DNA of 64,000 nt. Origin: Planctomycetota bacterium (GTDB taxonomy: Bacteria > Planctomycetota > UBA1135 > UBA2386). Both the position numbers and the translations under genes were made by a program. Location: assembly GCA_965228735.1 (NCBI GenBank), contig OZ245838.1, positions 576,001-640,000 of the forward strand, in the 5' to 3' direction. The notes below the pieces were generated by a model, which did not search any database, had not been told where the DNA came from, and saw only the letters and a list, made by a program, of their open reading frames with translations. Positions 6,233-46,776 of this stretch are shown here, one piece after another. The stretch's first letter is position 1. Every line of letters starts with the position of its first letter.

Positions 6233-6628
6233 CTATCTCGCTTCGGCACCCACGAACTTCTCAAGCACGCTCTCGGCAATGTCGAGCCATGACGAGTCGG
6301 CTAGCCGGTAGTAGGCGAGCTTGCCTTCGGCGCGGAACTCAACTGCTCCGAGGTTGCGCAGCTCTCGGAGGACCTGCGAGGTGCCGGACATGGAGATCCC
6401 GAGCACTTCACGGAGGTCGCAGACACACAGCTCCCGACCCTGAAGGGCCTTCAGTACGCGCAACCGGTTCGGGTTCGCGAGGACTCGAAAGGCGTCAGCG
6501 ACTCGTTGGAGCTCTGTGGTTGCGGGAAGCGACGCCTGAGCTTCCGAGACCATCGAGCAATCGACCTGGTTGATCTCGCAGGCCCCCTCGCGGGCCTTGG
6601 GGCTCTTCGACTTCGGCGTATCGTTCAT
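6233..6628 (-). CDS. ArsR/SmtB/CadC-family metal-responsive repressor
   Basis: FRVLANPNRLRVL...ELCVCDL...SGTSQVLRELR...EGKLAYY; first gene of the czc operon. Confidence 0.92.
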   Translation of the reverse strand: MNDTPKSKSPKAREGACEINQVDCSMVSEAQASLPATTELQRVADAFRVLANPNRLRVLKALQGRELCVCDLREVLGISMSGTSQVLRELRNLGAVEFRAEGKLAYYRLADSSWLDIAESVLEKFVGAEAR

Positions 6629-6664
6629 CATTTCAGTATATGATGAATCGACCGCGCAGGGCAA
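6624..6664 (-). promoter_or_regulatory. sigma-70-like leaderless promoter with overlapping ArsR-type operator
   Basis: Minus strand reads TTGCCC-N18-TATACT-gaa-ATG-ATG. A perfect inverted repeat TTCATCAT-N8-ATGATGAA at 6624-6647 covers the -10 and the start codon. Confidence 0.7.
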
Positions 6665-7186
6665 GTTGCTGAATGAAACTCTCGTGGGAAGTCACCAGGA
6701 GGTGGTCCGAGGGCGGGTCAAGGCCCCTTGGGATCGGGATTTACGCGCTTCTGAGCTGACCATCAGCGATCGCGAGGAGCTCCCTCGTACCTCATGCGCC
6801 GCGCCCATGACGACGAGAATGCGCTTTCGGCCCTCTTCGGGCCGGATGTTGGAGCCCAGAGGCAGACGTGGCGCTTGCGGGGAGGCAGTCGAAGGGCGTC
6901 TCGTTCTAGCGCTAGATCGCGGATGGCCCTAAACTGGCACAGACCACACTTGGCGAGCGGGATCATTCGGGGGAGAAGTCGTTCGTCATGCCGAACCAGC
7001 GGCGATCAAGTGGCCGGCGTGAGGCTAGCTCCGCGCCTGCGGCCGTTGCGCTCGGGTGAGTTTCGCCTACATTGCGGCCCCTGGGACTCCTTCAGGTGGA
7101 TTTCCTGAGCGGCACCTGGTTGTCAGGGTGAGGCGCTTTCGCGTTATCTCGGCCGTGCATCCGCCTAGCCCAGTCGAGAGAGATCC

Positions 7187-7822
7187 ATGAGAGGACATAT
7201 GAGAACCACCGTGCTCGCACTGCTATGCGGAGTCGTCTTTGGAGGCGTCCAAGCAATCGCTCAGGAGACCAAGAACGTTCCTGCGGCGAAGTCGACTACC
7301 CCGGCCACATACGTCGTCGGCGTGACGGGGATGACCTGAGGCGGTTGCGCCTCGGGGGTCCGTGAGACCCTCGCCAAGATCGCAGGCGTGAAGAGCGTCG
7401 AGATCGACCTCAAAGCCAAGACCGCGACCGTAGCCATGAAGAAGGGGGGGCTGACGCGCGAAGCTGTCGTCAAGGCGCTCGTGGACACCAAGTTCAAGGT
7501 GAGCTCCTTCGCGTCGGTCAAGGCTACGCGCATGACTCCGAAGGGCGTCTACGTCGTGGGCGTGACGGGAATGACTTGAGGCGGTTGCGCCTCGGGGGTC
7601 CGTGAGACCCTCGCCAAGATCGCGGGTGTGAATAGCGTCGAAGTCGACCTCAAGGCCAAGGCCGTGACCGTAGCCATGAAGAAGGGCTCGCTCACTCGCG
7701 AGGCTGTCGTCAAGGCACTTGCAGACACGAAGTTCAAGGTGAGCTCCTTCGCCTTGGTCGAGAAGAAACCGGCGGCGAAGAAGGCTGCCAAACCAGGCAT
7801 CAAGGCCGAGAAGAAGCTCTGA
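7187..7822 (+). CDS. Exported tandem-HMA selenoprotein (two GMT-U-GGC motifs; in-frame TGA at 7337 and 7577)
   Basis: One frame runs from ATG 7187/7199: signal peptide MRTTVLALLCGVVFGGVQAIA, two 80-aa repeats YVVGVTGMT*GGCASGVRETLAKIAGV.SVE.DLKAK..TV, and a Lys-rich tail. Each TGA sits at the first Cys of the HMA GMTCxxC motif and is followed by a SECIS-like hairpin. Confidence 0.88.
7353..7373 (+). promoter_or_regulatory. Putative bacterial SECIS element 1
   Basis: Stem CGGGGGTC/GACCCTCG with loop CGTGA; 21 nt lie between TGA 7337-7339 and the loop. Confidence 0.75.
7593..7613 (+). promoter_or_regulatory. Putative bacterial SECIS element 2
   Basis: Identical hairpin 240 bp downstream, after TGA 7577-7579. 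Confidence 0.75.
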
Positions 7823-7875
7823 GCTGGGTCGGCTAGACGATCGGGCCCCGGGCGCTGGCTGCGGGCCAATGCAAG

Positions 7876-7900
7876 GCCAACGCCACGACGTGGCGTTGGC
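7876..7900. terminator. GC-rich hairpin between convergent genes (possible bidirectional terminator)
   Basis: GCCAACGCCAC-GAC-GTGGCGTTGGC, perfect 11-bp arms; no U-tract. Confidence 0.5.
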
Positions 7901-7957
7901 GCTCAGCTGCAGCCGTGACGCTTCCCACGTCGCGGTTAGCGTCTCGGTTTCGATTCA

Positions 7958-10900
7958 TCAGCCCGTCGTCGTGTGCTGGCTACCGAGCCGCCGCTCCTTG
8001 ATGGTGCAGTAGAGCACGGGTACGACGAATACCGTGAGCATGGCGATCAGCATCCCACCGAAAGAAGGGATGGCCATCGGGACCATGATGTCGGACCCGC
8101 GGCCCGTCGAGGTCAGGACCGGGATGAGTGCGAGGATCGTCGTCGCGCTCGTCATGAGCGCGGGGCGGATACGCTTCTTGGCTCCCTCCACGACCAAGTT
8201 GTGTATGTCTTCGCGAGACCGCGGATGTGCTCCGCGGAAACTCTGTTCGAGGTAGGTCGCCATCACGACGCCGTCGTCTGACGCGATGCCGAATAGGGCC
8301 AGGAATCCGACCCAGATGGCGACGCTCAGGTTGATGGTGTCGACCTGGAAGAGGGCGCGCAGATTCTCGCCGAACAGGTCGATGTCGAGGAAGCCTCCGA
8401 TGCCGTACATCCAGATAAGGAGGAAGCCTCCTGCCCATGCGACCACGATGCCCGAAAACACCAGCAGCGAGGTCGAGACCGAACCGAACTGGAGGTAGAG
8501 GATCAGGAAGATGACGAACAGCGCGACGGGCAAGACCAGCGCAAGCGTCTTTTGGGATCGGATTTGGTTCTCGTAGCTTCCGGAGAAGCTGTAGCTCACG
8601 CCGGCGGGCAGTACGAACTCGCCGGAGTCGAGCTTCTGCTGTAGGAACGCCTGGCATTCTTCAACAACGTCGACTTCTGCGCTGTCCGCTTGCTTGTCGA
8701 AAACCACGTAGCCGATGAGGAACGTGTCTTCACTCTTGATGGCCTGTGGTCCGCGAACGAAGCGAATCTCCGAGAGCTCAGAGAGCGGGACCTGCGCGCC
8801 GGTCGGAGTGGGAACAAGGATCTCTCCGAGGCTCTCGGGCGTGTCGCGCAACTCCCGCAGATACCGGACGCGTACCGGGTACCGCTCACGACCCTCGACC
8901 GTCGTGGTGATTCGCTTACCGCCGATGGCTACCTCGATGACCTGTTGCACCGAGCCGACATGGAGGCCATACCTGCCGAGCGCCTTGCGGTTGAGCTCGA
9001 TCTCGAGGTAGGGCTTGCCAACCAGGCGGTCGGCGGTCACCGTCGGAGCGGATACGCCTGGGACCTGCTTCAGGTAGCGCTCCAGCTGCACGGCGACCTC
9101 CTCGATCGTAGCGAGATCGGGCCCTTTCACCTTGATGCCCATCGGCGCTCGCATGCCGCTTTGCAACATGACGATGCGCGCCGCGATCGGCTGCAGTTTC
9201 GGGGCAGATGTCGTGCCGGGTATCTCGGATGCCGCGACGATCTCGTCCCAGATGTCGTCGGGAGATTTGATGTGATCGCGCCACTGTCGGAACGGGCGTC
9301 CGTTCGTGTCGGGGATCAGGTCGCCTTCTTCGTTTCTCGCAAACTCGCCCGTTTCCTCGTCGAAGCGGAAGCTGATGCGGTCTCCGTCTTTATCGGTGAT
9401 GTATTCGGGCCGATAGTTGATGACCGTCTCGATCATCGAGATCGGGGCTGGGTCAAGAGGAGTTTCAGCTCGACCCAGCTTCCCGACGACTGACTCGACC
9501 TCCGGTATCCTGGCGATGGAGGTGTCCTGATACTGCAGGACCTCCATGGACTCACCGATCGACGCATGGGGGAGTGTCGTCGGCATGAACAGGTAGGAGC
9601 CCTCGTCCAGTGGTGGCATGAACTCCTTGCCGAGCCCCGGGAACACGCTCGCCATCCGTTGCCAGGGTGCACTCTGTCGCATGAACTCGGGCGCAAAGCC
9701 GAAGACGCGATCGAAACCGAACCAGGAGCAGGCGCCGAGAGCGACGATGAGGGTTGGCGCCGACAGGAACAGGAGCTTGTGTCGCAGGCACCATCGCAGG
9801 ACGCGCGGATAAACGCGTTGGAAGGCGAGGAACGTTCCTAGCAGTCCGCCGATCAGAACCCCGACGAATGCCAGGTTCTTGAGGAACCCGCGACTGGGAC
9901 CGAGCGGTAGCCACGATTGCGTTAGTTCGATCAGAACGAATAGCGCAACAGCCAGGCTGACGACGATCGGCCCCGAGTTACCGGTCCAGCGCGGGATCCT
10001 GCTCTTGAGGAGTTGGAATGCCGCAAATGCCAGGAGCAGACTCCCTCCGACGATGCTTGTTGTGATAGCTACGACGAGTCCTGCGGCGGCAAGCCCCGCA
10101 TGCATGAGAGCCTTGGTGCGCGTCGAGCGAATCGAGCCCGTGAACAGGATGTGGGCCGCCGGTGGGATCACCGTCAGTGCGACGATGATCGATGCAACCA
10201 GGGCGAACGTCTTGGTGAAGGCGAGTGGTTGGAAGAGCTTGCCTTCGGCGCCCGTCATCGTGAATACGGGCAAGAAGCTGACGACGGTCGTCGCGACGGA
10301 GGTGATGACGGCGCTGCCAACCTCGCGTGTAGCACGGAAGATCGTCTCGATGGGAGGTGTGTCGGGATCCGCTTCCCTGAGGTGGCGCAGGACGTTCTCA
10401 CAGATGATTACGCCCATGTCGACCATCGTGCCGATGGCGATTGCAATACCCGAAAGCGCGACGATGTTCGCCGCGACCCCGAACGTTCGCATGGCGATGA
10501 AGCACATCAGTACGGCGACTGGGAGCAAAGCGCTGATGAGCAAGGAGCTCCTCAGGTGAAGCACCATGATGAGCATCACGATCATCGTCACGAGGATCTC
10601 CTCGACGAGCGCTGAGTTGAGCGTGCCGAGAGTCTCGTAGATGAGGTCCGTTCGGTCATAGAACGGGACGATGGTCACCTGGCTGAGGTTCACGCCGGTA
10701 GGCCATGCCGACTTCTCATTGGATCTCAAGAACGGCACCCAGGCCGCTTGGTTGAGGTCGTCACCATCGAACGCCTCGAACCCCTGTAGGGCTGCGAAGC
10801 CGCGTAGCGCGTCTTTCGACGTTGCCGTGAAGTCAGCGATTGCCTTCGTCGGCAGTCCAGGGGCGATCTCCGCGATCTTCGCCTTGGTGTTCTTGATCGC

Positions 10901-11808
10901 CTGAAGCGGGTTGAAGCCGTAACGGACCACAACGACACCGCCAACGGCTTCTGCGCCGCCCTTGTCCAACGCCCCTCGACGCAGGGCGGGCCCCTTGGTG
11001 ACATGGCCGACATCGCGGACGCGGATCGGCACGTTGTCGTTGACACGTACGACGGTCTCCTCGATGTCCTCGACGTTCTTGACGAAGCCAAGGCCGCGGA
11101 TCACATACTCGGCTCGGCTGACCTCGATCGTGCGAGCGCCGACGTCGAGGTTCGACATCTTCGTTGCCGCGAAGACCTGATCCAGCGTGACGCCGTGTGC
11201 CCGCATGGCGTCCGGATCGACGTCGATCTGGTATTCCTCGACGAATCCACCGATGGAGGCGACCTCGCTTACGCCTTCTGCAGCAAGCAGCGTGTAGCGG
11301 ACATACCAGTCCTGCACACTGCGCAACTCCTGTGGCCCCCATCCTCCAGTGGGGTTGCCGTCGGGGTCGCGCCCCTCGAGTGTGTACCAGTAGACCTGAC
11401 CCAGTGCCGTGGCGTCCGGTCCGAGCGCTGGCTGGACGTCCGCGGGCAAGGTGCCTCTCGGCAGGCTGTTGAGCTTCTCGAGGACGCGGCTTCTGCTCCA
11501 GTAGAAGTCGATGTCCTCATCGAAGATGATGTAAACGGTCGAGAAGCCGAAGAACGAGTAACTGCGTACCGTCTTGACACCGGGCAGCCCGAGAATACGA
11601 TCTGCTGGTTCTCACCGATGTCGGGGATGGCGTCGACCGGAACCGGATCGCGTGGCAAGCCACCTGCTTTCCAATCGAACGGGGCGACGAGCGCACCCCA
11701 TCCCATGACGCCGAGCACAAGGAGGAAGACGATCAGCTTCTTCCGTAGGCAGAACCAGATCAGGCGGTCCAGGAACGACTTCGGTTCGTTGGTGAGATCA
11801 CTTGCCAC
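7958..11808 (-). pseudogene. cusA: CusA/SilA-family Cu/Ag RND transporter with an internal frameshifting deletion at ~11592
   Basis: The N-terminus (GTG 11808 ...VDAIPDIGENQQIVF) joins out of frame to GLPGVKTVRSYSFFGFS. The usual intervening segment of about two dozen residues (W.GRSP..VE.Q.TYPL) is absent. The rest is ORF 7958-11449 (GIAIAIGTMVD, RIRPALMT). Confidence 0.85.
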
Positions 11809-27182: not shown

Positions 27183-27342
27183 TGAGGCCGCGCGCGCTGA
27201 GCCGCCACGCGTGGCGGTGCCCTCGGCCGCCATGTGTTTGGCCGGACAGCGACGGCGCTGACAGGTTTCGTTGCCGGGATGGCCGTGCGAATTGGGCTGT
27301 CCCCGTGGTGGTCGGTGGGCGGTGATCGAGGGTTGCGCGGCG

Positions 27343-27358
27343 AGGCACGCACGTTGCT
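27343..27358 (+). promoter_or_regulatory. sigma-54 promoter
   Basis: AGGCACGCACGTTGCT upstream of the second YHS-repeat gene. Confidence 0.68.
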
Positions 27359-27373
27359 GTCTTTGTGTCGCGA

Positions 27374-28137
27374 TGCGTTGCAATAATGGTTGTCCAGCAC
27401 GCTGGTCTCGGCGGTGCTTCTGGCGCTCGTTCGCACGGTCCCTTTCGGTCTCGGGGGTGGCAATCGTGCTCGCCGTGTTCCTTCTTGCGTGCGCGGCGCC
27501 CCGTGGCTCGGGTGCGGGAGGAGTTCGCAACCGCATTGCGCCGAGTGCGTTTCGAGTCTCTCGGCCTTACTTCAGGATCGGTGACCCCTACCCGTTCGCC
27601 ACCTGCCCAGTTTCAGGTGAGGACTTGGCCGTGACCAAGACTGGGCTCATCAAGTCCTACGGCGGTCGCGAGGTGCGGTTCTGTTGCAGTCAGTGTTCGC
27701 GGTTGTTCGGTCAGGATCTGGTGAGCAGTTTTGCAGAGGTTGACCGGTGGATCGTAGCGGACCAGGAGGGGATCTACGCGATGAGGGATTCAGTCGTGAC
27801 CGGGAGGCAGTTGCCGGCACGCCCCGTCGAGTTCGTCGTAGGCAACCGGCTCGTCAGGGTTGATTCGAGCGACGAGAGGGAGGCCGTCATGAAGGGGCCG
27901 AGCAAGTTCCTCGATGCTCTGAGCAGGGCTGCCGCGCGTTCCCAGGCAGACGGCTACGGCCTCAGTAGCTGCCCCGTGAGTGGTCGTCCGATAGGCCTGC
28001 CTGCGCCCCCGTACCTGGAAGCTGTTGTCGCGGGTCGCCTGATTCGGGTTTGTTGTCCAGACTGCCTTGCGAACATCGATGAGAATCCCGCGAAGTACAT
28101 TGCGGTTGTCGATGCAGCGCGCAAGTCGCCGGGGTAG
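27374..28137 (+). CDS. Triple YHS-like repeat lipoprotein, paralog of 23347-24060
   Basis: LLAC lipobox; GDPYPFATCPVSG identical to the paralog; FCCSQC and VCCPDC. Start uncertain (27374 or later). Confidence 0.75.
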
Positions 28138-28248: not shown

Positions 28249-28551
28249 ATGAAGCATCTCTGGATTGCCTGCGCAGTCATCGTCGCGCTGTCATTCGCTG
28301 GCTGCAGCACGGTCAAGCACGACTCTCAGCTCACGTCTACCCAAGTCCACCTTGTCCTGGACAAGACGCCGACTTGAGGCGGTTGTGCCGCCACCGTGCG
28401 TGGTGCCGTGACCAAGCTCCCTGGCGTGTCGGGAATCGAGGTCGAGCCTGGTTCGGCCGATATCGTCGTCAGCCTTGACCCCAATGCGACAACTGTAGAG
28501 CAGTTGCTTGCGGGAATGGACGCCGCTGGGCAGTCGGCAAAGCGCAAGTAG
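28249..28551 (+). CDS. HMA-domain selenolipoprotein (KTPT-U-GGC; in-frame TGA at 28375)
   Basis: MKHLWIACAVIVALSFAGC lipobox; ...VHLVLDKTPT*GGCAATVRGAVTKLPGVSGIEVEPGSADIVVSLDPNATTVEQLLAGMDAAGQSAKRK then TAG; 100 aa with read-through. Confidence 0.85.
28381..28413 (+). promoter_or_regulatory. Putative bacterial SECIS element 3
   Basis: GGTTGTG-C-CGCCAC[CGTGC]GTGGTG-C-CGTGACC; 17 nt lie between the TGA and the loop; the loop shares CGTG with SECIS 1 and 2. Confidence 0.68.
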
Positions 28552-34396: not shown

Positions 34397-37375
34397 CTAT
34401 CCAGTTCCTCGCGCAGCCATGAGGTCGAGTATCGTGTTCTCCAGCACCAGAGTCCCCATCGAAGGCAGCCACCTTTCGCGGTCTTCGAGCAGGTGTCGGG
34501 CTACGGAGAGGACGGCTTCTCGGTCATCTCCACGATCCGACGCAAGCTCAGGGCTGCGGCCAAGCGCTACAGCAGCTCGTCGGTGCCTGACTCCGCCAGC
34601 TGCGAGCAATCTTCCGGCAGGCGTTGGGACACCGAAGCGTAGGTGCTCGGGGAAGTCCGCAACGGCCTTAGACAGTTCGAGGTTATTCGCGTCGAGCAGC
34701 TTCCTTAGCAGCCCGATGCCCTGCTCGACGGCTACCTGGAGGACGTAGCTGACGACCCGGGAATGAACGCCGAGCATGGTGTCGATATCGGTTTCCGTCT
34801 GGCTGGCGATCTCCGCCAGAGATCGGCCGTCGATCCACGCCTCCAAGATCCTGGCGAAACTCGACCGCGATGGGGGGGATCCCCGGTAGGCCTCGTCGAG
34901 TGCCTCGGCTACCTCGGGAAGGCCCCACGCCCAGACCAGCAGTGTCTCTGTCAACTCCGGATCGGTTGGCGTTTCGATGTCATCCCAGCGTTGTCGCATG
35001 GGTAACAGATTGACCTCCACCGACTCCAGCATTCGTGCTCGCGTACCCGTTTCTCGGATCCATGCGAGTCTCCCCGCTCCCTTGATGGCTGCCACGCGTT
35101 GAGCACGCAGCTCGAACACCTGTTTCATCAGTGCCGTGGTCGTTTGTTGAGCTTGGCGGGCCGCGAAAGTCTGGCTCGAAAGCTCTCCGGCCATGCGCAC
35201 GAGTTCATCTTCGCCTAGCTCCTCGGCGGCAAGATCGATAAGCGTTGCATCGATGCCGTCGATCAGAGTGTGAAGCGCCGTCGCACCCTCAAGGATGTCG
35301 TTTGTGAGGGTGATGCTCCGCTGGCTCAGTGCTGACTCGACGCGCCCCATCAACTCGAGCAGTGCCCCGGAGACGCGTTCGCCTGGCTGTTGCTCGGCCA
35401 CGGGGGCGACAAGTTGCCATTGTCCAGGGTTGGCGCAGATGACCAGCCCCTTGGTGGTTGCCCCAGCTCGTCCAGCGCGCCCGACGAGGTTCTTGATGTC
35501 GCGCGCGAGCAGGTTCTCTGCTGCTCCGTTGGGGCCACGACGCTGCACGGAGTAGAGGACCAACGTCCTGATCGGCAGGTTGACGCCTTCCGCCAAAGTG
35601 TTGGTGCAGATGGCAAGGCGAACGTCTTTGTCGCGAATCAGCGATTCCACGACTTCCCTGCTCTCTTGCGGAATGTCTCCATGATGCAGTATGGCTCCTG
35701 CCGCAAGTGTTCGTGTGCCCACCCAGGAAGCGCCGTATTCCAGGGTGAAGTGCTCAACTGCCGACTGCAGCTTCACCGCATCCCCGACGAACTGCATGGG
35801 GGCGGGCAGGGGCAGCAGGCTCGCCAGTTGTTGGAGGAGTTCATGAGCGAGCCCTACGGCTCCCTGAGTGCCTCTCTTGTTGGCCGCGAACACGGCAACG
35901 GACCCCATCGAGAGCGACTTCCGTGCTGCTGCGATGGCTTGGGCCTTCACAGATTTGAAAGGGTATGTGTTCAGCCGGTTCGTAGTGGGATTGCGGTGGC
36001 GAAAGTCATCACGGCTCAGGAATCGTTCGATAGAGAACGTGGATGCGGCTTGGTGTGGGTGAAGCTGAAGCGCGACCGTCATGGCGGCGCCTTTGCCAGC
36101 TACCTGCAGCGCTGCGAACTCTGCGAGAGCCGGGCGGTAGTCACTGCGAACGACGGTCTGATCCGTGCCGCCAAGCCACACGTTGATCTCCTCGATGTTC
36201 GGGACGATCGCGGAAACGAAGACGAACTTTGGCGGGCCTTTCTCGCGGGCGCGCATGCGGGCGAGCAGCAACTCAAGTCCGACCCCGCGCGCCTCACCAT
36301 CGAGGAGGTGCCCTTCGTCGCAGATGACGAGGGATACTCGGGAGTAGAAGTCCGGCTCTGCGCTGAGCAGGCCCGATAGTGCCTCAGGCGTTGCGACGAT
36401 CGCGCGTGCTGCATCGAGGTCTCTGACTTCTTCGCCGGTGGGCACGGTACCTCCATACGCACACCTGGTGGGAAGGCCCATGTTGCTCAAGCGCTTTGCA
36501 AGGCTGCCGCGAAGCTCTGCCGCGAGCGAGCGAAAGGGGACGAGCAGGATGGCCACATCCTGCGGGTTGCGGTTGAGGTGGTGAAAGAGGAGGGTCTCAG
36601 AGAGAGCTGTCTTTCCCGCGCCTGTCGGCATCTGTAGGGAGAATGAGGCCACGCTTCCAAGCAGGCCGCTCCTAATGGCATCGATTTGCGAGGGGAAGAA
36701 ATCCCAGGTAGGTGGGGTCCGGTTGAGGAACGACCGCACTAGCGGGTCCCAGAATCCCGATTCGCCATCGGGTAGAACTGCACGGACGTTAGTTCGCTCG
36801 AACTTGGAGAGGACCCGCCCGAATAGCCGCCAGCCGATCCACTCACCGGAATCTGTGTGCAGTGCAGATGCCTCCTTCTCAGTCGCGTACTCGCCCTCCG
36901 CCCGAAGCACCTCAAGGTTCCCTCTTCGAACGCCGCCAACAAGGGTACGCACACGTGCCGACCTGATCGCCGGTGGACGTGAGAGCAGCTCGTAGCACGC
37001 GAGCTGAATGTCATCGAGGGCACCCGGGTCGCAGGTCTTCAACGTGACGTAGGCCGATGCAGAGTAACCGCCGAAGTAGAACGCGGCCGCAGCAAAGATG
37101 GCGGCTTCGGCCGCCATGATACCGGAGTAGGCGTTTGCCCGAGCTTCTCCTACGCCGCCGGCCTGAGTGATGGCGTTGCCCAGGCGTGACCAGTCGACCG
37201 GATCGCGGTAGGGCTCACGGAGCCTGTCGAAGAGCTCGCCGACGAGGGAAATGTAGTAGTCGTCGCCTCGTGACCTGATGTAGCTCAGCTGTAGTGGCGG
37301 CTGCGAGGAGCCGAACCGTTCCACGTGATGAAGGGCGTCAGCGTCACCGACCCACTTTGCCAGAGTTGCCCTCAC
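34397..37375 (-). CDS. hamB: Hachiman HamB-like Ski2/DEAD-box helicase
   Basis: MPTGAGKT, VATPE, DEGH, SAI, HHG, TNTLAEGVNLP and GRAGR; coupled to hamA by a GTGA overlap. Confidence 0.85.
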   Translation of the reverse strand: MRATLAKWVGDADALHHVERFGSSQPPLQLSYIRSRGDDYYISLVGELFDRLREPYRDPVDWSRLGNAITQAGGVGEARANAYSGIMAAEAAIFAAAAFYFGGYSASAYVTLKTCDPGALDDIQLACYELLSRPPAIRSARVRTLVGGVRRGNLEVLRAEGEYATEKEASALHTDSGEWIGWRLFGRVLSKFERTNVRAVLPDGESGFWDPLVRSFLNRTPPTWDFFPSQIDAIRSGLLGSVASFSLQMPTGAGKTALSETLLFHHLNRNPQDVAILLVPFRSLAAELRGSLAKRLSNMGLPTRCAYGGTVPTGEEVRDLDAARAIVATPEALSGLLSAEPDFYSRVSLVICDEGHLLDGEARGVGLELLLARMRAREKGPPKFVFVSAIVPNIEEINVWLGGTDQTVVRSDYRPALAEFAALQVAGKGAAMTVALQLHPHQAASTFSIERFLSRDDFRHRNPTTNRLNTYPFKSVKAQAIAAARKSLSMGSVAVFAANKRGTQGAVGLAHELLQQLASLLPLPAPMQFVGDAVKLQSAVEHFTLEYGASWVGTRTLAAGAILHHGDIPQESREVVESLIRDKDVRLAICTNTLAEGVNLPIRTLVLYSVQRRGPNGAAENLLARDIKNLVGRAGRAGATTKGLVICANPGQWQLVAPVAEQQPGERVSGALLELMGRVESALSQRSITLTNDILEGATALHTLIDGIDATLIDLAAEELGEDELVRMAGELSSQTFAARQAQQTTTALMKQVFELRAQRVAAIKGAGRLAWIRETGTRARMLESVEVNLLPMRQRWDDIETPTDPELTETLLVWAWGLPEVAEALDEAYRGSPPSRSSFARILEAWIDGRSLAEIASQTETDIDTMLGVHSRVVSYVLQVAVEQGIGLLRKLLDANNLELSKAVADFPEHLRFGVPTPAGRLLAAGGVRHRRAAVALGRSPELASDRGDDREAVLSVARHLLEDRERWLPSMGTLVLENTILDLMAARGTG

Positions 37376-38184
37376 GTCTCACCGCCCGCTTCCGCGACGG
37401 TGGCATGAGCGGCGTCGAATACGGCTTCGTAGCGTTCCTTCAGGTTTGGAACTGCGATGACTACAACCGTGTGGTCTGCAGGCGCTTCGTCGGGCGCGTC
37501 TGCCAGTTCGTTGTCCACGAGGTTCTCGCAAATGACCGCGACGGCGTGGAAGCACTTCTTGGCTTGGGGGTGGTCCGTGGCCTTGATGAAGCGGTCGAGG
37601 TGATCGATGGTCGTGCTGCCAAGGTCTTCATGAAGCGCACGTTCCCTCAGCCAAACTAGGGTCTTCGCCAATCGACTGGTTCGGTCTTTCTCGCAGTCAT
37701 CAATCGCCTTGGAAATCGGTGATGAGGCTCCGGCCGTGGCCTTCGTCTTTACCTCAGAGCACAGGATGCGGTCCTCGGTCGAGGAGCGTGGCCAGCTCGG
37801 CAGCACGAAGTGAACGACATCCGAGTGTGGCGCTGGTTTTGTTCGGTCCTGCTTCAGGCGCCACTTCTTTGGGCCAATGAGGTCGACATCGCGTTCGGCA
37901 GCTGCGTGGTAGAGAAACACCAGTATCTCGCCGAAGTCCCCTGACATCGTCGAACCTGGATCCGGGAGCCTCGCGGCGACGATCTCCGACCGAGGGCAAC
38001 CGGTTGCCTGCACGCGCGCCTTGAGGACGGTGTCATCGATGTAGCACCGACGGACTGAGACACCAAGGACGTCCGACCAAGCAGCAGCGTGCTCGTCGGG
38101 AACACGCACAAGCACGAAGGGCGATCGCTGCTCTTCGGCGAACCAGCGTGTCACGGTCTCAACTTCGAGGCCAAGGTCTCGCAT
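37372..38184 (-). CDS. hamA: Hachiman HamA-like (DUF1837) nuclease
   Basis: SGDFGEIL...HSDVVHF...SEVKT PD-(D/E)xK-like pattern directly upstream of the helicase. Confidence 0.8.
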   Translation of the reverse strand: MRDLGLEVETVTRWFAEEQRSPFVLVRVPDEHAAAWSDVLGVSVRRCYIDDTVLKARVQATGCPRSEIVAARLPDPGSTMSGDFGEILVFLYHAAAERDVDLIGPKKWRLKQDRTKPAPHSDVVHFVLPSWPRSSTEDRILCSEVKTKATAGASSPISKAIDDCEKDRTSRLAKTLVWLRERALHEDLGSTTIDHLDRFIKATDHPQAKKCFHAVAVICENLVDNELADAPDEAPADHTVVVIAVPNLKERYEAVFDAAHATVAEAGGET

Positions 38185-39898: not shown

Positions 39899-41395
39899 TT
39901 ACTTCCGCGGACCATCTGTGAGGCCGAGATCCTGCGCGTCTCGCGCCCCGTTCTCAGATGGCTTCACCTTCGGCTTCCGGTCCAGTTCGTCCTTCAGTCG
40001 CTTGTAGTCCAGGTAGTGGAAGATCCCCTGGATGCTGTTCGTCGCCGAACAGACGAATGCGGTGAAGAGCTCGGCGATAGTCGCCTCCCTCTTCGTCAGC
40101 TCTTCCGCGACGCGGAGCACGACGCGCGGATCGGGTTCGCGCGCGTCCACGAATCGTTGCCACCAAGTCCTGGCAGACTTGGGAGCCGCGTCGACCTCGA
40201 GGCTCGGAAGGACCTCTTCGAGCCGTTCGCGAATCTGATCGTGCGTCCAGCCCCTCGTGTTCGTGATTCCATCGACACGGCCGAACTCGCGCGTGACGAA
40301 CGGTGGGAGGGCCGGGCGGTCCTCCTTCGCAGCTCGCGTCGATGCTCCGTAGTGGAAACGGGCCTTCTGTCCCTCGTCCACCGTCCGGCAGGTAACCTCG
40401 ATCCGATGCACGGGCCTCTGCTCCTGAAGGAGGCGCCAGATCGTCGGCTCGAGAACCTTCGTCGCGACCCGGTCCAGCGCTCGAGCTCCGGTCCCAAGGG
40501 ACAGCGCACGTCGGGCGATGGCTCGCATGGCTCCTTTCGAGATCGAGAGCTTGGCACCGTGTTTCGCGGCGAACGCTTGGGTGCTGCGGATGATCGATGC
40601 CTTGGAGTCCGAGAGTACACGTTCGAGCTCGTCGAGCGTCAGCGGGCGCAGGTGGGCGACGGTCGTGAAACGCCCGAGAAGTTCCGGGATCATGCCGAAC
40701 TCGACGAGCGCTCCGTGGCCTTCGAGCTCCGGGGAGACCGGGCCGGGATCACCTTGGATGCCTGTGAATCCGAGAGATCCTCGTCGGTGGCGGGAATCGA
40801 GGATCTCCTCCATCCCAGGAAACGCGCCGGCACACACGAAGAGAATCCCGCGAGTGTTGACCATCGTCGTCTCGCCCTCTCGGCGGATGGCAACCTTGGC
40901 GCCGTCCATCAGTTTCAGCAGGGACTGCTGCACGCCTTCGCCGGAGATGTCCCTCGAGCCGTCGGTCGACCGGCGCTTCTTGTCGATCTCGTCAATGAAG
41001 ATGATCCCGCGCTCCGCTCGGCGCACGTCGCCATCGGCCGCATGCAGCAGTCGGTGCACGATGCTGTCTGGGTGTTCGCCCGCATAGCCGACCTCGACGA
41101 GATTCGTCGCGGAGCACGTGGCGATGGGGGGGGCGATCAGACGGCCGAGCTCTCGGACCATTCGGGTCTTCCCACAGCCGGTTGGGCCTACGAGCAAGAC
41201 GTGCTGAGCGCCGAATGCTGGACCGTTGTGTTCGGAGGCCTCCGAGAGGCCCAGCTGGTGTCGGTACACGGCAAGCGCCAGGGCACGTTTCGCATGGTCC
41301 TGCCCGATGATGATCCGGTCGAGGTCCCTTACGAGCTCCGGAGGGCGCGACAGCGGAAGCCGGGCATGCCTCGGATGAGGCACTACCATGAGCAC
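39899..41395 (-). CDS. ClpX-like AAA+ ATPase lacking the zinc-binding domain, with a novel C-terminal extension
   Basis: IIGQDHAKRAL, GPTGCGKT, FIDEIDK, RDISGEGVQQSLLK, GMIPELLGR, GARAL; LGF loop present. Confidence 0.88.
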   Translation of the reverse strand: MLMVVPHPRHARLPLSRPPELVRDLDRIIIGQDHAKRALALAVYRHQLGLSEASEHNGPAFGAQHVLLVGPTGCGKTRMVRELGRLIAPPIATCSATNLVEVGYAGEHPDSIVHRLLHAADGDVRRAERGIIFIDEIDKKRRSTDGSRDISGEGVQQSLLKLMDGAKVAIRREGETTMVNTRGILFVCAGAFPGMEEILDSRHRRGSLGFTGIQGDPGPVSPELEGHGALVEFGMIPELLGRFTTVAHLRPLTLDELERVLSDSKASIIRSTQAFAAKHGAKLSISKGAMRAIARRALSLGTGARALDRVATKVLEPTIWRLLQEQRPVHRIEVTCRTVDEGQKARFHYGASTRAAKEDRPALPPFVTREFGRVDGITNTRGWTHDQIRERLEEVLPSLEVDAAPKSARTWWQRFVDAREPDPRVVLRVAEELTKREATIAELFTAFVCSATNSIQGIFHYLDYKRLKDELDRKPKVKPSENGARDAQDLGLTDGPRK

Positions 41396-42813
41396 ACTCC
41401 GACCGTCTGGATGTCGCGGGCGGTCGCGACGATGTCTTCGGCAAGCGCGAGGTCATTCGCGGATGGGCCGCCGACCGTGAGGAAGTTGTAGCCGACCCCT
41501 CCGTCTTCCAGGCCGTCGAAGACCGGTGCCCGGGGCATGCTGTAGAAGTCCAGGTGGTGCCCCGCCTCGGCCATCCCGCGAGCGAGCTGAGTCCCTGGCA
41601 GCACCGTTTGCACGTTGGGATAGAACCCGGCGACCTTGACGTCGGTGTCGCGGACCGCATCGGTCAGGTCGCGAGTCAGGTTCAGGGACCGTCTGTTCTC
41701 GAGAACGACCCCCTTGGTCGACATCGAGCCGAACATCAGCGACAGCCCGACCCGCGGCCCCTGCTTCGCGATCCACTTCGTGCGTTCCGCGACCAGTCTT
41801 GGCTGCAGCTGCGGCTTCCGGATGCCCTCGAGCACGTCCGGAGCGCCCGATTCGATGCCGGCATAGAGGTAGGTGCAACCATGGTCAGCGAGTTCGGCGA
41901 TGCGTCGCTCGGTGAGGGTCGGCAGGTAGACCTGGCAGCCCCATTCGCGGTCGAGACCGCGTAGTAGCGGAAGCAGTTCGGAGCTCGAGCCGTTGCCGGC
42001 CGGGAAGATGCTGTCCTGGAAGTAGAGTGCGGCGTCCGGGACACGGTCGGCTAGTTCTTCGACCCATCCGTAGTCGCTTGTGCGGAACACGCTGCCATCC
42101 CGGTTGGCCTCCGCGCAGAACGTGCACCGCCCATACGAGCAGCCACGGGAGACCATGAGCGGAATCGTCGACGGGGCCTCGAACACGTCGAATCGTGGGT
42201 AGCTCTCGGGAACCACGAGCGGCCGCGGGTCGCGGAAGCGACTGGGGCCGCGGTCGAACTCGACCCTCGCGGGCCAGTTGCAGTTCGCGACCGTGAACAC
42301 CCCACAGGTGGTGGCCTCGTCGAGCTCGCCCGGGTGCAGGTCCCGCGCGAAATCCGCTGCCGTTCGATTGTCTGTCAGATACAGCTCGAGCACGCCCTGC
42401 AGGGCCGAGGGTGCTTCGCCGCCGATCGAGATGTGCACACCGGGGAGTCGGTTGGCGGTCTTGGTGCCGATGTCGTTCTCGTGTGGCCCGCCTACGATGA
42501 CGAGGGTCTCAGGCGCGAAGAGGGAGCTCGTTGCGGCGATCCGCGCCGTTTCTTCGATGGCTGCCGTAGACGTCGAGATGCACAGCGCGCGTACTCGCCC
42601 GGTCGCGAGCAGACCCTCAAGGTGCCGGTAGAACTCGGCGGTCGGGCTGCCGGGGTCGAGGTAGCTCACTTGGCGTTTCGGGTTGGCTACGACGAAGGGG
42701 CCGGCAGCTGCGAACATGCTGCTCGGCACCGCGCGAAACTTCAGACGGCCGGGGTAGGGGGCGTGGACGAAGAGGACCTCTGGTGGGGTCACGGCTTCTC
42801 GGAGGACGGCCAT
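41383..42813 (-). CDS. B12-binding-domain radical SAM protein
   Basis: VIVGGPHE...GGEA N-domain; SRGCSYGRCTFC; GIESG. Overlaps the ClpX-like gene. Confidence 0.85.
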   Translation of the reverse strand: MAVLREAVTPPEVLFVHAPYPGRLKFRAVPSSMFAAAGPFVVANPKRQVSYLDPGSPTAEFYRHLEGLLATGRVRALCISTSTAAIEETARIAATSSLFAPETLVIVGGPHENDIGTKTANRLPGVHISIGGEAPSALQGVLELYLTDNRTAADFARDLHPGELDEATTCGVFTVANCNWPARVEFDRGPSRFRDPRPLVVPESYPRFDVFEAPSTIPLMVSRGCSYGRCTFCAEANRDGSVFRTSDYGWVEELADRVPDAALYFQDSIFPAGNGSSSELLPLLRGLDREWGCQVYLPTLTERRIAELADHGCTYLYAGIESGAPDVLEGIRKPQLQPRLVAERTKWIAKQGPRVGLSLMFGSMSTKGVVLENRRSLNLTRDLTDAVRDTDVKVAGFYPNVQTVLPGTQLARGMAEAGHHLDFYSMPRAPVFDGLEDGGVGYNFLTVGGPSANDLALAEDIVATARDIQTVGVCSW

Positions 42814-42886
42814 ACGGTCTAGATGCTAGATCCGAAACTGGGATATGCCAAGTGGGGAAGTAGGATTCGGTGCAGAGACTCCACAG

Positions 42887-43138
42887 ATGCCCAAGTCCAC
42901 CCATACGCCCGAGTACCGAGTGCTTCGGGATCTGCTGCGCGAGCTACGCGAGCGTGAGGGGACTCTTCAGGCCGACTTGGCGGAGAGTCTCGGGGTGCCC
43001 CAGTCCTACGTGAGCAAATCCGAGAACGGTGAGCGGCGGCTCGACATCCTCGAGGTGCGGGAGTGGTGTCGCGGGTTGGGGGTGCCGTTCGTTGAGTTCA
43101 GCAAGGAGCTGGATCGGCGTTTGCGTAGAAAGCGGTGA
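42887..43138 (+). CDS. XRE-family HTH regulator
   Basis: LRELRE...QADLAESLGVPQSYVSKSENGERRLD; divergent from the radical SAM gene. Confidence 0.9.
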   Translation: MPKSTHTPEYRVLRDLLRELREREGTLQADLAESLGVPQSYVSKSENGERRLDILEVREWCRGLGVPFVEFSKELDRRLRRKR

Positions 43139-43204
43139 GAATCGAGCGTGACCGCGAGGTCGGTAGCCGTGCACTGATTCGCGTGCCACGGACCGTGCGC
43201 CCGA

Positions 43205-43885
43205 CTACGCCAGGCAGTCGTCCTCCAGCCGCGTACCTCGCCTCCAGGCAGATTCGTAGGCCTCGAGGAATGCGCGAGTGATCGTCGGATGTCGGAGTTC
43301 GATCAGGTGTCGTAGCACGAGGCCGTCCCCGAACGTTTCCGTTTCGGTTGGGTGGTATCCGGGAACGGCGATCAGGACGGCGTCCTCATCGACGACCGCG
43401 AAGCTCAGCGGGAGCGGGTTCCCCGACGCGGTCTCGACAAACCTCTGGCGAAGAAGCTCGTGCGGCCCGAACTCGCGGATCCAGCGAACTCCGGCTTGAC
43501 GGTGGTCAGGACGTACGAAGATCAGGCGACGAATCTCGATGCCGCGCTCGAGCAGTCGACGGTAGAGGCCCAAGAGCTCATCGTGAGGCGCGTCGTCGTC
43601 GAGATGGATGAGGAGCAGGCTGCGGTGGGCGTGTCGGAACAGATCCGCGTAGCCGCGCCCGTGCAGGGCCCCATCGAGGTGCACACGCGCCACTCGGTTG
43701 CCGGAAGCAGCGGCAAGCAGCCCGACGAGAAAGGTGAGGAGGAGGAAGCCCGCCGTTCCAAGCGCGACCGTTGGGCCCGGGACCTCGAGTAACGAGGCCG
43801 CTGTAGCACCGAGTCCGGCCAAGCCGAGTGCGATCTCGACCTGTGCTGTCGTGAATGGAAACCAAGCGAGCTTCCTCTCCATCAT
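43205..43885 (-). CDS. Two-TM protein with a degenerate PLD-like domain
   Basis: Two hydrophobic helices, then AHRSLLL...RGIEIRRL...SFAVVDEDAVLI...FLEAYESAW; no intact HxK motif. Confidence 0.65.
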   Translation of the reverse strand: MMERKLAWFPFTTAQVEIALGLAGLGATAASLLEVPGPTVALGTAGFLLLTFLVGLLAAASGNRVARVHLDGALHGRGYADLFRHAHRSLLLIHLDDDAPHDELLGLYRRLLERGIEIRRLIFVRPDHRQAGVRWIREFGPHELLRQRFVETASGNPLPLSFAVVDEDAVLIAVPGYHPTETETFGDGLVLRHLIELRHPTITRAFLEAYESAWRRGTRLEDDCLA

Positions 43886-45351
43886 CCCTCCTGATTTGAG
43901 GGTCTCATGGATCGGAGGGCTACTCAAGTCGGCGGGTTGCGAGCGGTCTTGGGTTGAGGGAGAAAGTGGCTAGCCCAATAGCTGTGGCTTCCCGGAAGGA
44001 TGCCGCTCCTCAGGCGAGCGCAGCCCTCTTGTGTTCCCGTGAAGCTCTAAGGGGAGGACGGCAACCATCGCAAGATCGAATGAGGCGGCTGAGGGTCCGC
44101 TCGAGGATTGCTGTTGCCCAGTGGGCTAGTCGCGTCGACCAACTCATCTAGAACTTCTGCACGAGTTCCAGAGCTCGCTTCCCATAGGTCGCGAGCTCGT
44201 CGCTATCGACCAACTGCCCGCTGCTCGTGCCATCGTCTTGTGGGTGGTGGTATCGCTTCGCGTAATCCTTGAGGTCCTCCAAGTCTTCGAGGATGCACTT
44301 GGCCTGTGCGAGCGGAGATCCTTCGTCGGCGTCCGCGATGGCCTTCACGTAGTCGCCGAGCCATCCCTTCGCGTCAAGCTGGTTCGGCAACTTCCACCGA
44401 AGGTACTTCTCCAGCAGGACGCGCATTGTCTTCACAACACTCTCGGGGCTGCCATCGCGATACTCGCAATACTTCCAGAGTGTCGTGAAGTTCTGATAGT
44501 ACTCCTCAAGCACTTCGCTCTCGATGTCCCACTCCATCACGCCGCCAAGCTCAGTGAGCTGGAGTGTCTTCTTCTCGGCCGCGGGCAACTCGTCCCATAT
44601 GAGCTTTAGGAAGTTGGGGTCGTGGGACAGAACGACAACTTGGCGTGTCTTCTGGGCGAGCCTTCTGATGCTCTGCTGAGTGCAGACTCTTCTCCCGCGA
44701 TCCTGGCTAGTAAAGGGGTCGTCCAGCACGACCACTTTGTCCGCCAGGTTTGGACTCGCCTCGACCTGAGCGAAAAAGAACGCCAACGCAAGAGCGCTCT
44801 TGTCACCTGCGCTGAGCGTGTTCTTGAACGACGCCTGGTCATTGGGCGTCTTGAGGTCCCCTAGCCTCACCTCCTCCCATGAACCCTCGTGCGCCTCGAT
44901 GGCTAGGCAATAAGTCGTGCGAGGCTTCCCGCCCGGAAACTCGGCCGCCGTCTTTCGAACTCTGAAGGATGTGCCGAACCTCTTGAGATACTCGTTGATG
45001 CGCTTTTCGTAGCGTTGAAAGACGCTCTCGGAGTAATTCTCGAGCTTCTGTTTTGCCTTCAACTTCTCGAGGTCAGCTGCAGCTCTCTTGGTCCGTGCGG
45101 CGAGTAGCTCCTGGCATGCTGCTGTTGCCTCCGCCCCCGCTCGAGTATTCGTCGCCGCGAGTTCGGCAAGGTCTTGTCTTGCCTCCGTCAGGCCTCCCTT
45201 GCGCGATTCCTCTTGCTTGGCCCGCATTGCAGCGTTGACCCTCTCGACGGCCGAGTTGTAAGCCATCACCGAGGACCGTGCCTGAGCGACTGCTTCCTCT
45301 GCCGCACTCAGTTCCAGAGCAATATCGATTGCCTCTAGCGGCGCCTCACAC

Positions 45352-46776
45352 GGTAGTGCAGCATGCGTTCTGTAAACCGCCCGAGGCAGCTTGACGCAGT
45401 CGGCGGTGGTCGTCGCGGTCGGTCTGGGCGCTGCACCCTGGGTGCAGTGGCCAGGCCGACCGCGACGACCACCGCCGGCGCGGACGGATGCTTCAAGTCG
45501 GCGAGTCACGACGCTCAGCTTTTGTTAACCACAACGAAAGCAGAACGAAGTGACCCACCAATCCGAAAGTAGCACGCTCGACACCGTCTTGGAATCCATC
45601 GCAACGCAGGGTCTGGGAGGGATCGCGGACGCGATCCGCGTCCTCGTGAACGAGGCCATGAAGATCGAGCGATCCGCGTTCCTGGGCGCCGGTCCAAACG
45701 AGCGTACCGAGTCACGACGGGGCTACGCCAACGGCTTCAAGCCGAAGACCGTGGCGACTCGCGTCGGCGCGATCGAGTTCGCCGTCCCGCAGGTCCGCGA
45801 GGCCGTCGACGGCGAACGCTTCTATCCGACGGCACTCGAACGCGGGATTCGCTCGGAGCGCGCCCTGAAGCTCGCGGTCGCCGAGATGTACGTCCAGGGC
45901 GTCTCGACCCGCAAGGTCGCCGCGATCACCGAGGAGCTCTGCGGAGTACAGGTGTCGTCCCAGCAGGTCTCCCGGGCCGCCGCGGCACTCGACGACGAGC
46001 TGCAGCAGTGGCGGATGCGCGAGCTCGGCCGGTGCCGCTACCTGGTCCTCGATGCCCGCTACGAAAAGGTCCGGCACGCCGGCTCCGTCATGAGCGCCGC
46101 CGTCCTGATCGCGACGGGCGTCGATGATGCAGGCCATCGCTCGGTCCTCGGCGTCAGCGTGTCGCGCTCGGAAGCCGAGGTCCACTGGCGCGACTTCCTC
46201 GACAGCCTGCGTGAACGTGGCCTGCACGGGCTCGGACTCATCGTCAGTGACGACCACTCTGGCCTCCGCCAAGCTTTGGCGGCGAGCTTTCCCGGAGTCG
46301 CTTGGCAACGCTGCCAGTTCCACCTGCAACGCAACGCCGCTCCACGAGTGCCGACCGTCTCGTTGCGCCCGTCGATCGCTCGTGGACTTCGTGCGGTCTT
46401 CAACGCTCCAGACCGACCTGAGGCCGAACGGCTTCTTGATAGGCTTCTGGAGGATCACGCGGAAACCGCTCCCGACTTTGTCCGGTGGGCTCGCGACAAC
46501 GTCCCCGACGGCTTCGCTGTCTTCGCGATCCCGGCGACGCACCGTCGCTGCCTTCGCACGACCAACATGCTCGAGCGCCTCAACAAGGAGCTCCTGCGCC
46601 GCACCCGCGTTGCGACGCTCTTCCCCAACGACGCCTCTCTTCTCCGGCTCGCCACCGCGGTCCTCATGGAGATCAGCGAGGACTGGGTGACTGGCCGTCG
46701 CTATCTCTCCATGGACGCTGAGTGAAATGATTCGCCGACTATGGGCTCGCTCTTACAGAACGAATGTTGCTTTGCC
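45352..46776 (+). mobile_element. IS256-family insertion sequence, 1425 bp
   Basis: Imperfect 24-bp terminal IRs (GGTAGTGCAGCATGCGTTCTGTAA / GGCAAAGCAACATTCGTTCTGTAA); 8-bp TSD CCTCACAC at 45344-45351 and 46777-46784. Confidence 0.95.
45550..46725 (+). CDS. IS256 (Mutator-like) transposase
   Basis: EMYVQGVSTRKV, LDARYEKVR, SDDHSGL, WQRCQFH, TTNMLERLN. Confidence 0.96.
   Translation: MTHQSESSTLDTVLESIATQGLGGIADAIRVLVNEAMKIERSAFLGAGPNERTESRRGYANGFKPKTVATRVGAIEFAVPQVREAVDGERFYPTALERGIRSERALKLAVAEMYVQGVSTRKVAAITEELCGVQVSSQQVSRAAAALDDELQQWRMRELGRCRYLVLDARYEKVRHAGSVMSAAVLIATGVDDAGHRSVLGVSVSRSEAEVHWRDFLDSLRERGLHGLGLIVSDDHSGLRQALAASFPGVAWQRCQFHLQRNAAPRVPTVSLRPSIARGLRAVFNAPDRPEAERLLDRLLEDHAETAPDFVRWARDNVPDGFAVFAIPATHRRCLRTTNMLERLNKELLRRTRVATLFPNDASLLRLATAVLMEISEDWVTGRRYLSMDAE

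Follow-up and report, generated by a model that had tools for sequence, protein, structure and literature searches.

Two genes in a 64,000-nucleotide stretch of Planctomycetota DNA (the window) contain in-frame UGA codons, each followed at short distance by a hairpin with a CGUGN loop. Comparison with homologous sites makes it highly probable that these hairpins are ordinary bacterial SECIS elements, which would recruit the host SelB to read UGA as Sec and so yield predicted exported HMA metal-binding proteins with a U-x-x-C site. We favour this reading because the hairpins are conserved with compensatory changes, because they are tied to UGA-type sites, and because the genome carries the full Sec machinery. 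Gene callers end both genes at the UGA, and annotation would thereby overlook two metal-binding proteins encoded on a mobile heavy-metal element.

Predicted read-through genes and their hairpins

The genes were translated with TGA as U. The first, P0002 (7199-7822, + strand), encodes 207 amino acids comprising two tandem HMA domains, each with the motif GMT-U-GG-C, and a Lys/Ala-rich tail. A purine-rich RBS-like stretch lies at 7189-7195 and a signal peptide was predicted by eye. UGA 1 (7337-7339, +; residue 47) occupies the place of the first ligand of the HMA CxxC motif, and UGA 2 (7577-7579, +; residue 127) the first ligand position of the second U-x-x-C. The gene ends at a further UGA (7820-7822, +), likely a true stop; 14-40 nt beyond it there is no G-[G/U]-loop hairpin, and it serves as an internal control. 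Between P0002 and a convergent RND pump gene stands a perfect 12-bp inverted repeat (7876-7900), a possible terminator which the terminator scan did not call. The second gene, P0001 (28249-28551, +), encodes 100 amino acids with one HMA domain and the motif TPT-U-GG-C; its UGA (UGA 3, 28375-28377, +; residue 43) stands at the first HMA ligand, and a lipobox-like LSFAGC, recognised by eye, predicts a lipoprotein. The Pfam HMA model (PF00403, gathering cut-off 24.8) matched P0002 in two stretches (81.9 bits, E=4e-23) and P0001 with 38.9 bits (E=1e-9). Both proteins scored under every NCBIfam cut-off, the nearest models being CopZ, NF041115, MerP and NF045683. Contigs from RNA libraries of three studies span parts of the P0002 gene; these were not counted as evidence, since contigs are silent on transcription, strand and level.

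Hairpin 1 (7353-7373, +; loop 7361-7365) has an 8-bp stem, CGGGGGUC[CGUGA]GACCCUCG, lies 21 nt past its UGA and shows covariation in the in-frame register. Hairpin 2 (7593-7613, +; loop 7601-7605) is identical and likewise 21 nt past the UGA. Both fold at -12.5 kcal/mol with a closing pair probability of 0.97-0.98, and 5 of 200 shuffles of the surrounding 47-mer folded equally well. Hairpin 3 (28389-28405, +; loop 28395-28399), CGCCAC[CGUGC]GUGGUG, has a 6-bp stem 17 nt past the UGA and sits in a codon register different from that of hairpins 1 and 2. The free strand has a different minimum-energy fold (closing pair probability of the hairpin 0.04); with the UGA and the next 9-12 nt forced unpaired, as they might be on a ribosome, the probability rises to 0.44-0.77. 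Its bare perfect stem reaches -6.9 kcal/mol against a consensus cut-off of -7.5, although the consensus model's energy may be computed otherwise. The sequence-only reading had described both structures, the CGTGA-loop fold behind the first two UGAs and a different stem with loop CGTGC behind the third (28375), and both were recovered. An alternative first hairpin incorporating the UGA itself (GAGGCG/CGCCUC) was ruled out, codons +1 and +2 being variable and RNAalifold predicting no such helix. An Rfam search over 6600-8000 returned a single weak match, under its gathering score.

In bacteria, SECIS elements lie directly 3' of the UGA, with a G near the start of the apical loop. The consensus of Zhang and Gladyshev, as given in the legend to Fig. 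2A of PMC13188914, has a loop of 3-9 nt on a stem of 4-16 bp at a spacing of 16-37 nt, a G as the first or second loop base with G or U after it, and an energy limit of -7.5 kcal/mol. The three hairpins agree with the consensus as worded there in lying in the coding region 3' of the UGA, in their spacing of 17-21 nt, loop of 5 nt and stem of 6-8 bp, and in having G at position 2 followed by U. They differ in that loop bases 1 and 5 (C with A or C) are unpaired, whereas the common pattern of the model optionally pairs them; hairpin 3, moreover, is slightly weaker than the energy limit, and no conserved lower stem was found. Each UGA stands at a Cys-equivalent position with its loop 21, 21 or 17 nt away (CGUGA on 8 bp, CGUGC on 6 bp), and structure with compensatory changes is present in UGA-type homologs and absent from Cys-type ones. 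The mechanism is that of the known SelB/SECIS system, and the loop falls within the published bacterial consensus.

For comparison with E. coli, we take the published G23/U24 element to be that of fdhF. These two bases are the conserved apical ones of the E. coli-type element in the available text of PMC8659212; relative to that description, the hairpins share a minimal upper stem-loop some 11-13 nt after the UGA, an apical G-U and variability elsewhere, and differ in their closing bases and in lacking the bulged U (U17) of the 5' arm. Hydrogenases likewise show conservation of the loop G and constraint at the level of codons, as described in the accessible part of PMC13582414.

Constraint on the hairpin

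P0002 contains a direct repeat of 213 nt at a spacing of 240 nt, with 88% identity (25 of 213 positions differ). The sequence-only reading had held that the two copies diverge right up to the UGA and again afterwards, whereas the 47 nt from each TGA are frozen. The divergence is as described, with mismatches at 7318, 7330 and 7336 and then at 7384, 7387 and beyond, and the codons quoted for it are correct; the 47 nt (7337-7383 and 7577-7623, +), comprising the UGA, 13 nt, the hairpin and 10 nt, are indeed the same in both copies. This identity is no assembly slip, because a separate assembly graph, that of run X15 (which may be the source sample), contains a 47-nt unitig corresponding exactly to 7577-7623 at double depth. 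The longest mismatch-free runs between the repeats measure 47, 23 and 21 nt. Scattering 25 mismatches randomly over 213 nt leaves this particular 47-nt stretch untouched with P=0.0014 and yields a run of at least 47 anywhere with P=0.034. Synonymous sites were changed in 0/14 cases within the 47 nt versus 15/46 outside (Fisher one-sided p=0.0096); with a single-domain ortholog from another genome (G123) added, the figures were 0/11 and 18/45 (p=0.008).

The freeze is nevertheless narrower than had been claimed. In the single repeat pair, the flanks of the hairpin alone (0/7 synonymous sites changed, p=0.08) are within chance and the stem codons alone are not significant (p=0.12), and codons +1 to +3 vary freely among homologs. 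The demonstrable constraint is limited to the 21-nt hairpin, not the whole 47 nt: the identity is real and the extent of the element was overstated. Downstream of UGA 1, codons +1 to +61 differ between the repeats by 12 synonymous and 8 non-synonymous changes, a pattern expected for translated sequence. The tandem duplication thus offers a natural view of an RNA constraint within coding sequence.

The figures for the repeat pair alone leave some room for another account. The 47-nt identity would then reflect chance, gene conversion or a recent duplication; the genes would be decayed ones that truly end at the UGAs, and the hairpin would arise merely from encoding V-R-E-T in GC-rich DNA. A run of this length somewhere in the repeat has P=0.034, neither the stem nor the flanks are significant when tested separately, and chance or conversion may well account for the 26 nt outside the hairpin. 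Taken as a whole, we regard this account as exceedingly improbable. Beyond the UGA the frames stay open and purifying selection acts on them, Cys-type HMA genes are without the loop, and UGA and hairpin are retained together across many genomes, with rare codons and compensatory changes; the covariation described below largely refutes it.

The class was searched in 301 genomes, giving 71 UGA rows among the 60 loci listed. Removal of three rows from the identical copy in genome G007, four from two U-x-x-U genes, two duplicates and our own three left 59 sites. A hairpin was scored as a perfect stem of at least 4 bp carrying a G-[G/U] loop 16-37 nt from the UGA at no more than -4 kcal/mol. The sequence-only reading had staked its case on conservation of the hairpin in TGA-bearing homologs, and a hairpin of this kind was present at 59/59 homologous UGA sites (41/59 at -7.5 kcal/mol or better), compared with 3/18 Cys-HMA sites and 284/1,479 UGA stops. 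The loose consensus alone is therefore weak evidence, as 19% of true stops satisfy it. The CGUGN loop is far more discriminating: it was found at 48/59 UGA homologs, 0/18 Cys-HMA sites, 2/1,479 UGA stops and 9/2,000 sampled Cys codons. Together with the compensatory changes, these counts make it very likely that the hairpins are of SECIS type with a recurrent CGUGN loop, as had been proposed. Among the listed class matches to P0001 other than itself, 54/55 contain one TGA.

Covariation, which had been suggested as a check, was found in two codon registers, the homologs being grouped by register. In the register of site 3 (32 sequences), 192/192 cells pair and 3/6 base pairs are changed on both sides; 0/500 shuffles matched this, slid controls reached at most 53% pairing, and RNAalifold predicted only the hairpin-3 helix. 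In the register of sites 1 and 2, an in-frame CG[G/U]G occurs at 34/44 sites (26 distinct segments), with 96% of cells paired and 26 two-sided changes, a result equalled by 0/2,000 shuffles. These counts overstate the number of independent events, since the sequences are related. Codons +4 to +9 are nearly fixed in the site-3 register, and codon choice runs contrary to genome usage, Val being GTG in 32/32 cases (genome 39%) and Arg CGT in 25/30 (genome 8%). Four P0001 homologs have the hairpin shifted from 17 to 21 nt with the loop CGUGC retained, and in a three-domain homolog from another class (L190) the freeze extends across codons +6 to +12 only.

Several homologs depart from the U-x-x-C arrangement. 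In HMA-like homologs at L027, L039, L040, L025 and L031 (near 1500-1900), often two-domain, the second Cys is absent and Sec would be the sole remaining ligand; every UGA has its own CGUGN or CGGGA hairpin. The HMA homologs L192, L197, L200, L206, L018, L021 and L194 have two UGAs three or four codons apart (U-x-x-U or U-x-x-x-U). For L192, L197, L200 and L206 the perfect-stem scan gave no good hairpin, so that their SECIS may be bulged or shared.

All four components that Sec incorporation requires of the host, SelA, SelB, SelC and SelD, are encoded in the genome. The selA, selB and selD products exceed the NCBIfam cut-offs, and SelB has a winged-helix domain. The tRNA-Sec (selC) scores 76.6 bits; it is the one tRNA with anticodon UCA and the sole match over the tRNA-Sec cut-off among the 150 of 1,101 candidates scored. 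selA adjoins selD at G000:C1:121367-123694, with selB (1.54 Mb) and tRNA-Sec (2.83 Mb) at other places. The host SelD gene itself contains a UGA followed by a CGGGC-loop hairpin. In the phylum, selD was found in 220/301 sampled genomes, and most of those listed have an internal TGA. Use of UGA as a general sense codon was ruled out, TGA being the main stop codon of the host and ending 1,479 of 2,255 long genes.

The same hairpins could in principle bind SelB while the residue inserted at the UGA is Cys, delivered by a tRNA of the tRNA-ReC type, or some other amino acid. The accessible text of PMC13582414 reports that in some genomes tRNA-ReC brings about recoding to Cys that depends on a SECIS. 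We consider it very improbable in this host: its only UCA-anticodon tRNA is the match to tRNA-Sec, selA and selD are both present, and many known selenoprotein families here have a UGA at the Sec position. The hairpins are strong evidence that both proteins are selenoproteins.

The mechanism we propose for the SECIS reading follows the established bacterial SelB system. SelB.GTP.Sec-tRNA would bind the G-U at loop positions 2-3, which lies at the apex of the hairpin 17-21 nt past the UGA, and Sec would be delivered once the UGA reaches the A site. One element would serve each UGA, so that the duplicated domain would have retained two; as each repeat would need its own, the duplicated hairpin could not drift and the synonymous sites within it would be fixed. 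The constant part of the loop would be N1-G-(U/G)-N-N2, in this clade N1 would mostly be C and N2 A or C, left unpaired (CGUGA, CGUGC or CGGGN), and elsewhere the two may often form a Watson-Crick pair over a triloop.

Occurrence of the CGUGN loop

The sequence-only reading had also proposed a lineage-specific class of SECIS with loop C-G-U-G-N, which would imply that the SelB of this clade needs an open loop and reads C1 and G4 besides G2-U3. A screen for TGA codons within coding-like sequence of the host (203 of 69,991 listed) furnished 37 sites, chosen by peptide motif before RNA inspection, from which 33 fragments were scanned. A family match across the UGA was obtained for 22 (17 non-HMA, 5 HMA), 7 were plausible and 8 were rejected. 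These eight by-eye selenoprotein candidates were dropped because the family matches either pointed to a pair of adjoining genes or failed to back them, and CGUGN is absent from all eight. The loop was present at 8/22 validated sites, comprising 5/5 HMA and 3/17 non-HMA sites (Trx, SelL and VPGU), the latter to be compared with 2/1,479 stops (p=1e-5). Other non-HMA host sites have the loops CGGGC, CGGGU, GGUC (twice), GGUCG, AGGU and AGUU (twice, once on a bulged stem) or the paired triloops A[GUC]U, C[GUG]G and G[GUU]C, and three are without a clear hairpin. At a threshold of -4 kcal/mol, 5/17 non-HMA sites fail the perfect-stem scan: ArsC, Prx and one Trx7 have no such hairpin, and SelL and VPGU have a weak one of 4 bp.

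Variation is likewise found beyond the host. Loops of GUC, GGC, GGUCA or AGUU occur in 10/59 class homologs. L181 encodes an unchanged GGCAATVRGAL peptide with the paired loop G[GUU]C; that of L195 is C[GUG]G, likewise paired. A homolog at L164, a record titled Engelhardtia mirabilis Pla133, has a UGA and the loop CGUGC. CGUGN is also found in other classes of the phylum, at 13/29 UGA-HMA sites and 4/38 SelD sites. In the SelD survey, which sampled 43 loci out of the 220 genomes with selD, 26/38 sites from other families have paired triloops; the host's family has open CGGGC or CGGGA loops at 4/4.

A lineage-specific class gains something from these data, namely the recurrence of CGUGN in unrelated host genes and in at least two codon registers, the uniformly open SelD loops of the host's family set against the triloops prevailing in others, and the invariance of C1 and G4 across the 32 sequences of the site-3 register. 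The invariance, however, stems partly from a conserved V-R dipeptide and shared descent. One and the same host SelB must also serve GGUC, GGUCG, AGUU, AGGU and paired GUC, GUU and GUG loops, related genes such as L181 and L195 have exchanged the pentaloop for a triloop, and other classes use CGUGN too. The loop is thus neither used by nearly all host selenoprotein genes nor confined to the lineage, the survey covering this phylum. Comparison with the host's other SECIS elements, the check that had been recommended, also went against the proposal, as SelD has CGGGC and most of the non-HMA sites have other loops. We consider such a class unlikely, and a separate category of loop is not warranted on present evidence. 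Across the host, its class and the other classes, the constant is G-(U/G) at loop positions 2-3, with the open C...A/C pentaloop as a frequent local form.

Within the ordinary SECIS reading we tentatively entertain a weaker form of the idea, which is possible, if doubtful: Planctomycetota SelB may have a preference for C-G-(U/G)-G-(A/C) as an open pentaloop, in which C.A or C.C might make a non-canonical closing contact, and unrelated genes in different codon registers may have arrived at this loop time and again, even where this altered the protein sequence. If so, it would be distinguishable as a sub-type among bacterial SECIS elements and would serve as a highly specific search key (2/1,479 true stops) for a large, under-catalogued selenoproteome, with at least 22 sites and further uncatalogued candidate families in this host. 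In any case, CGUGN/CGGGN loops offer a low-noise key to further Planctomycetota selenoproteins, and the family provides natural variants (open pentaloop or paired triloop; spacings of 17 to 27 nt) bearing on what a non-enteric SelB reads.

Protein families, genomic setting and further candidates

HMA-type selenoproteins are tabulated in PMC13188914 as UxxC in cation-transporting ATPases (TIGR01525) and as NF041115; the accessible part of that table holds no stand-alone exported U-x-x-C HMA entry. P0002 and P0001 share with NF041115 (UxxU), NF045683 (a MerT/CopZ fusion) and TIGR01525 the HMA fold and Sec at a metal-ligand motif, and differ in being stand-alone, predicted exported and of U-x-x-C type, P0002 having two domains with a SECIS of its own for each. 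P0002 and P0001 reach 70.7 and 30.5 of the 95 bits of NF041115 and 53.2 and 16.7 of the 375 bits of NF045683. With MerP and CopZ (TIGR02052, NF033795, NF047957) they have in common an HMA domain with a GMT-C-x-x-C-type site, a metal-resistance neighbourhood and, as in MerP, a signal peptide; they differ in that Sec replaces the first Cys, and the scores are 58 of 92.55 for MerP and 84.2 of 85 for CopZ AFE_1862. No mer operon was found among the window proteins scanned. Judged by fold and gene context, the proteins probably chaperone or buffer metals for the efflux systems encoded nearby, either in the periplasm or anchored to the membrane, and Sec would provide a ligand for soft metals.

Use of Sec in Planctomycetes is already on record in the available portion of PMC4807772, and that of bioRxiv 10.1101/2022.07.06.499078 describes metal-related selenoproteins together with a GGU-loop SECIS. 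We found no description of the CGUGN loop or of these proteins in the accessible literature, which leaves most subscription papers aside; the candidate selenoproteins of planctomycetes in S9 Table of PMC4807772 may affect how new the proteins are.

The genes are surrounded by two RND efflux sets, an ArsR regulator, a multicopper oxidase, a P-type ATPase, a two-component pair, ParA, a TrwC relaxase (58039-60720) and a coupling protein. Some 60 kb of the window (all but 40001-44000) is 100% identical to G007, a genome from another genus of the same family, except for a 1.4-kb Mutator-family transposase stretch (about 45352-46773) missing from the G007 copy, which in turn has about 70 extra bases near window position 11593. 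G154, a 90% complete genome of the same genus, has no long match to window positions 1-40000. The window is therefore likely to represent a recently moved metal-resistance element, given its identity to another genus and the lack of a long match within its own. Just upstream of the lipoprotein gene P0001 lies a Cys-rich ORF (27271-28137, +) with repeated CPV(S/T)G, which looks YHS-like and has no Pfam match at 1e-5. The element also carries a HamA (PF08878) gene followed by a DEAD-box helicase (34397-38184, - strand), a pair presumably resembling the Hachiman anti-phage system.

Elsewhere in the host genome, two genes for FG-GAP-repeat proteins with an in-frame U-C motif (L078:276-965, +, and L079:446-1135, -; G000:C1:3065085 and 5872224) have matching [AGUUC] hairpins 19 nt behind the UGA and no NCBIfam match; they constitute a candidate uncatalogued selenoprotein family. 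Two paralogs with GHPLGCT-U-NNG (L085:545-1234, -, and L086:568-1257, -; G000:C1:4855623 and 7087946) have SECIS-like hairpins with loops CGUGC and GGUC; neither Pfam nor NCBIfam matched the 230-residue fragments that were scanned. Three single candidates, likewise with no family match, are DWL-U-MC with loop CGGGA (L088:327-1016, +; G000:C1:5150736), GRQA-U-GMC with loop C[GUG]G (L095:373-1062, -; G000:C1:7165651) and the HMA-like GLG-U-MGT, in which the second Cys is absent and the loop is CGUGA (L073:130-534, -; G000:C1:2123).
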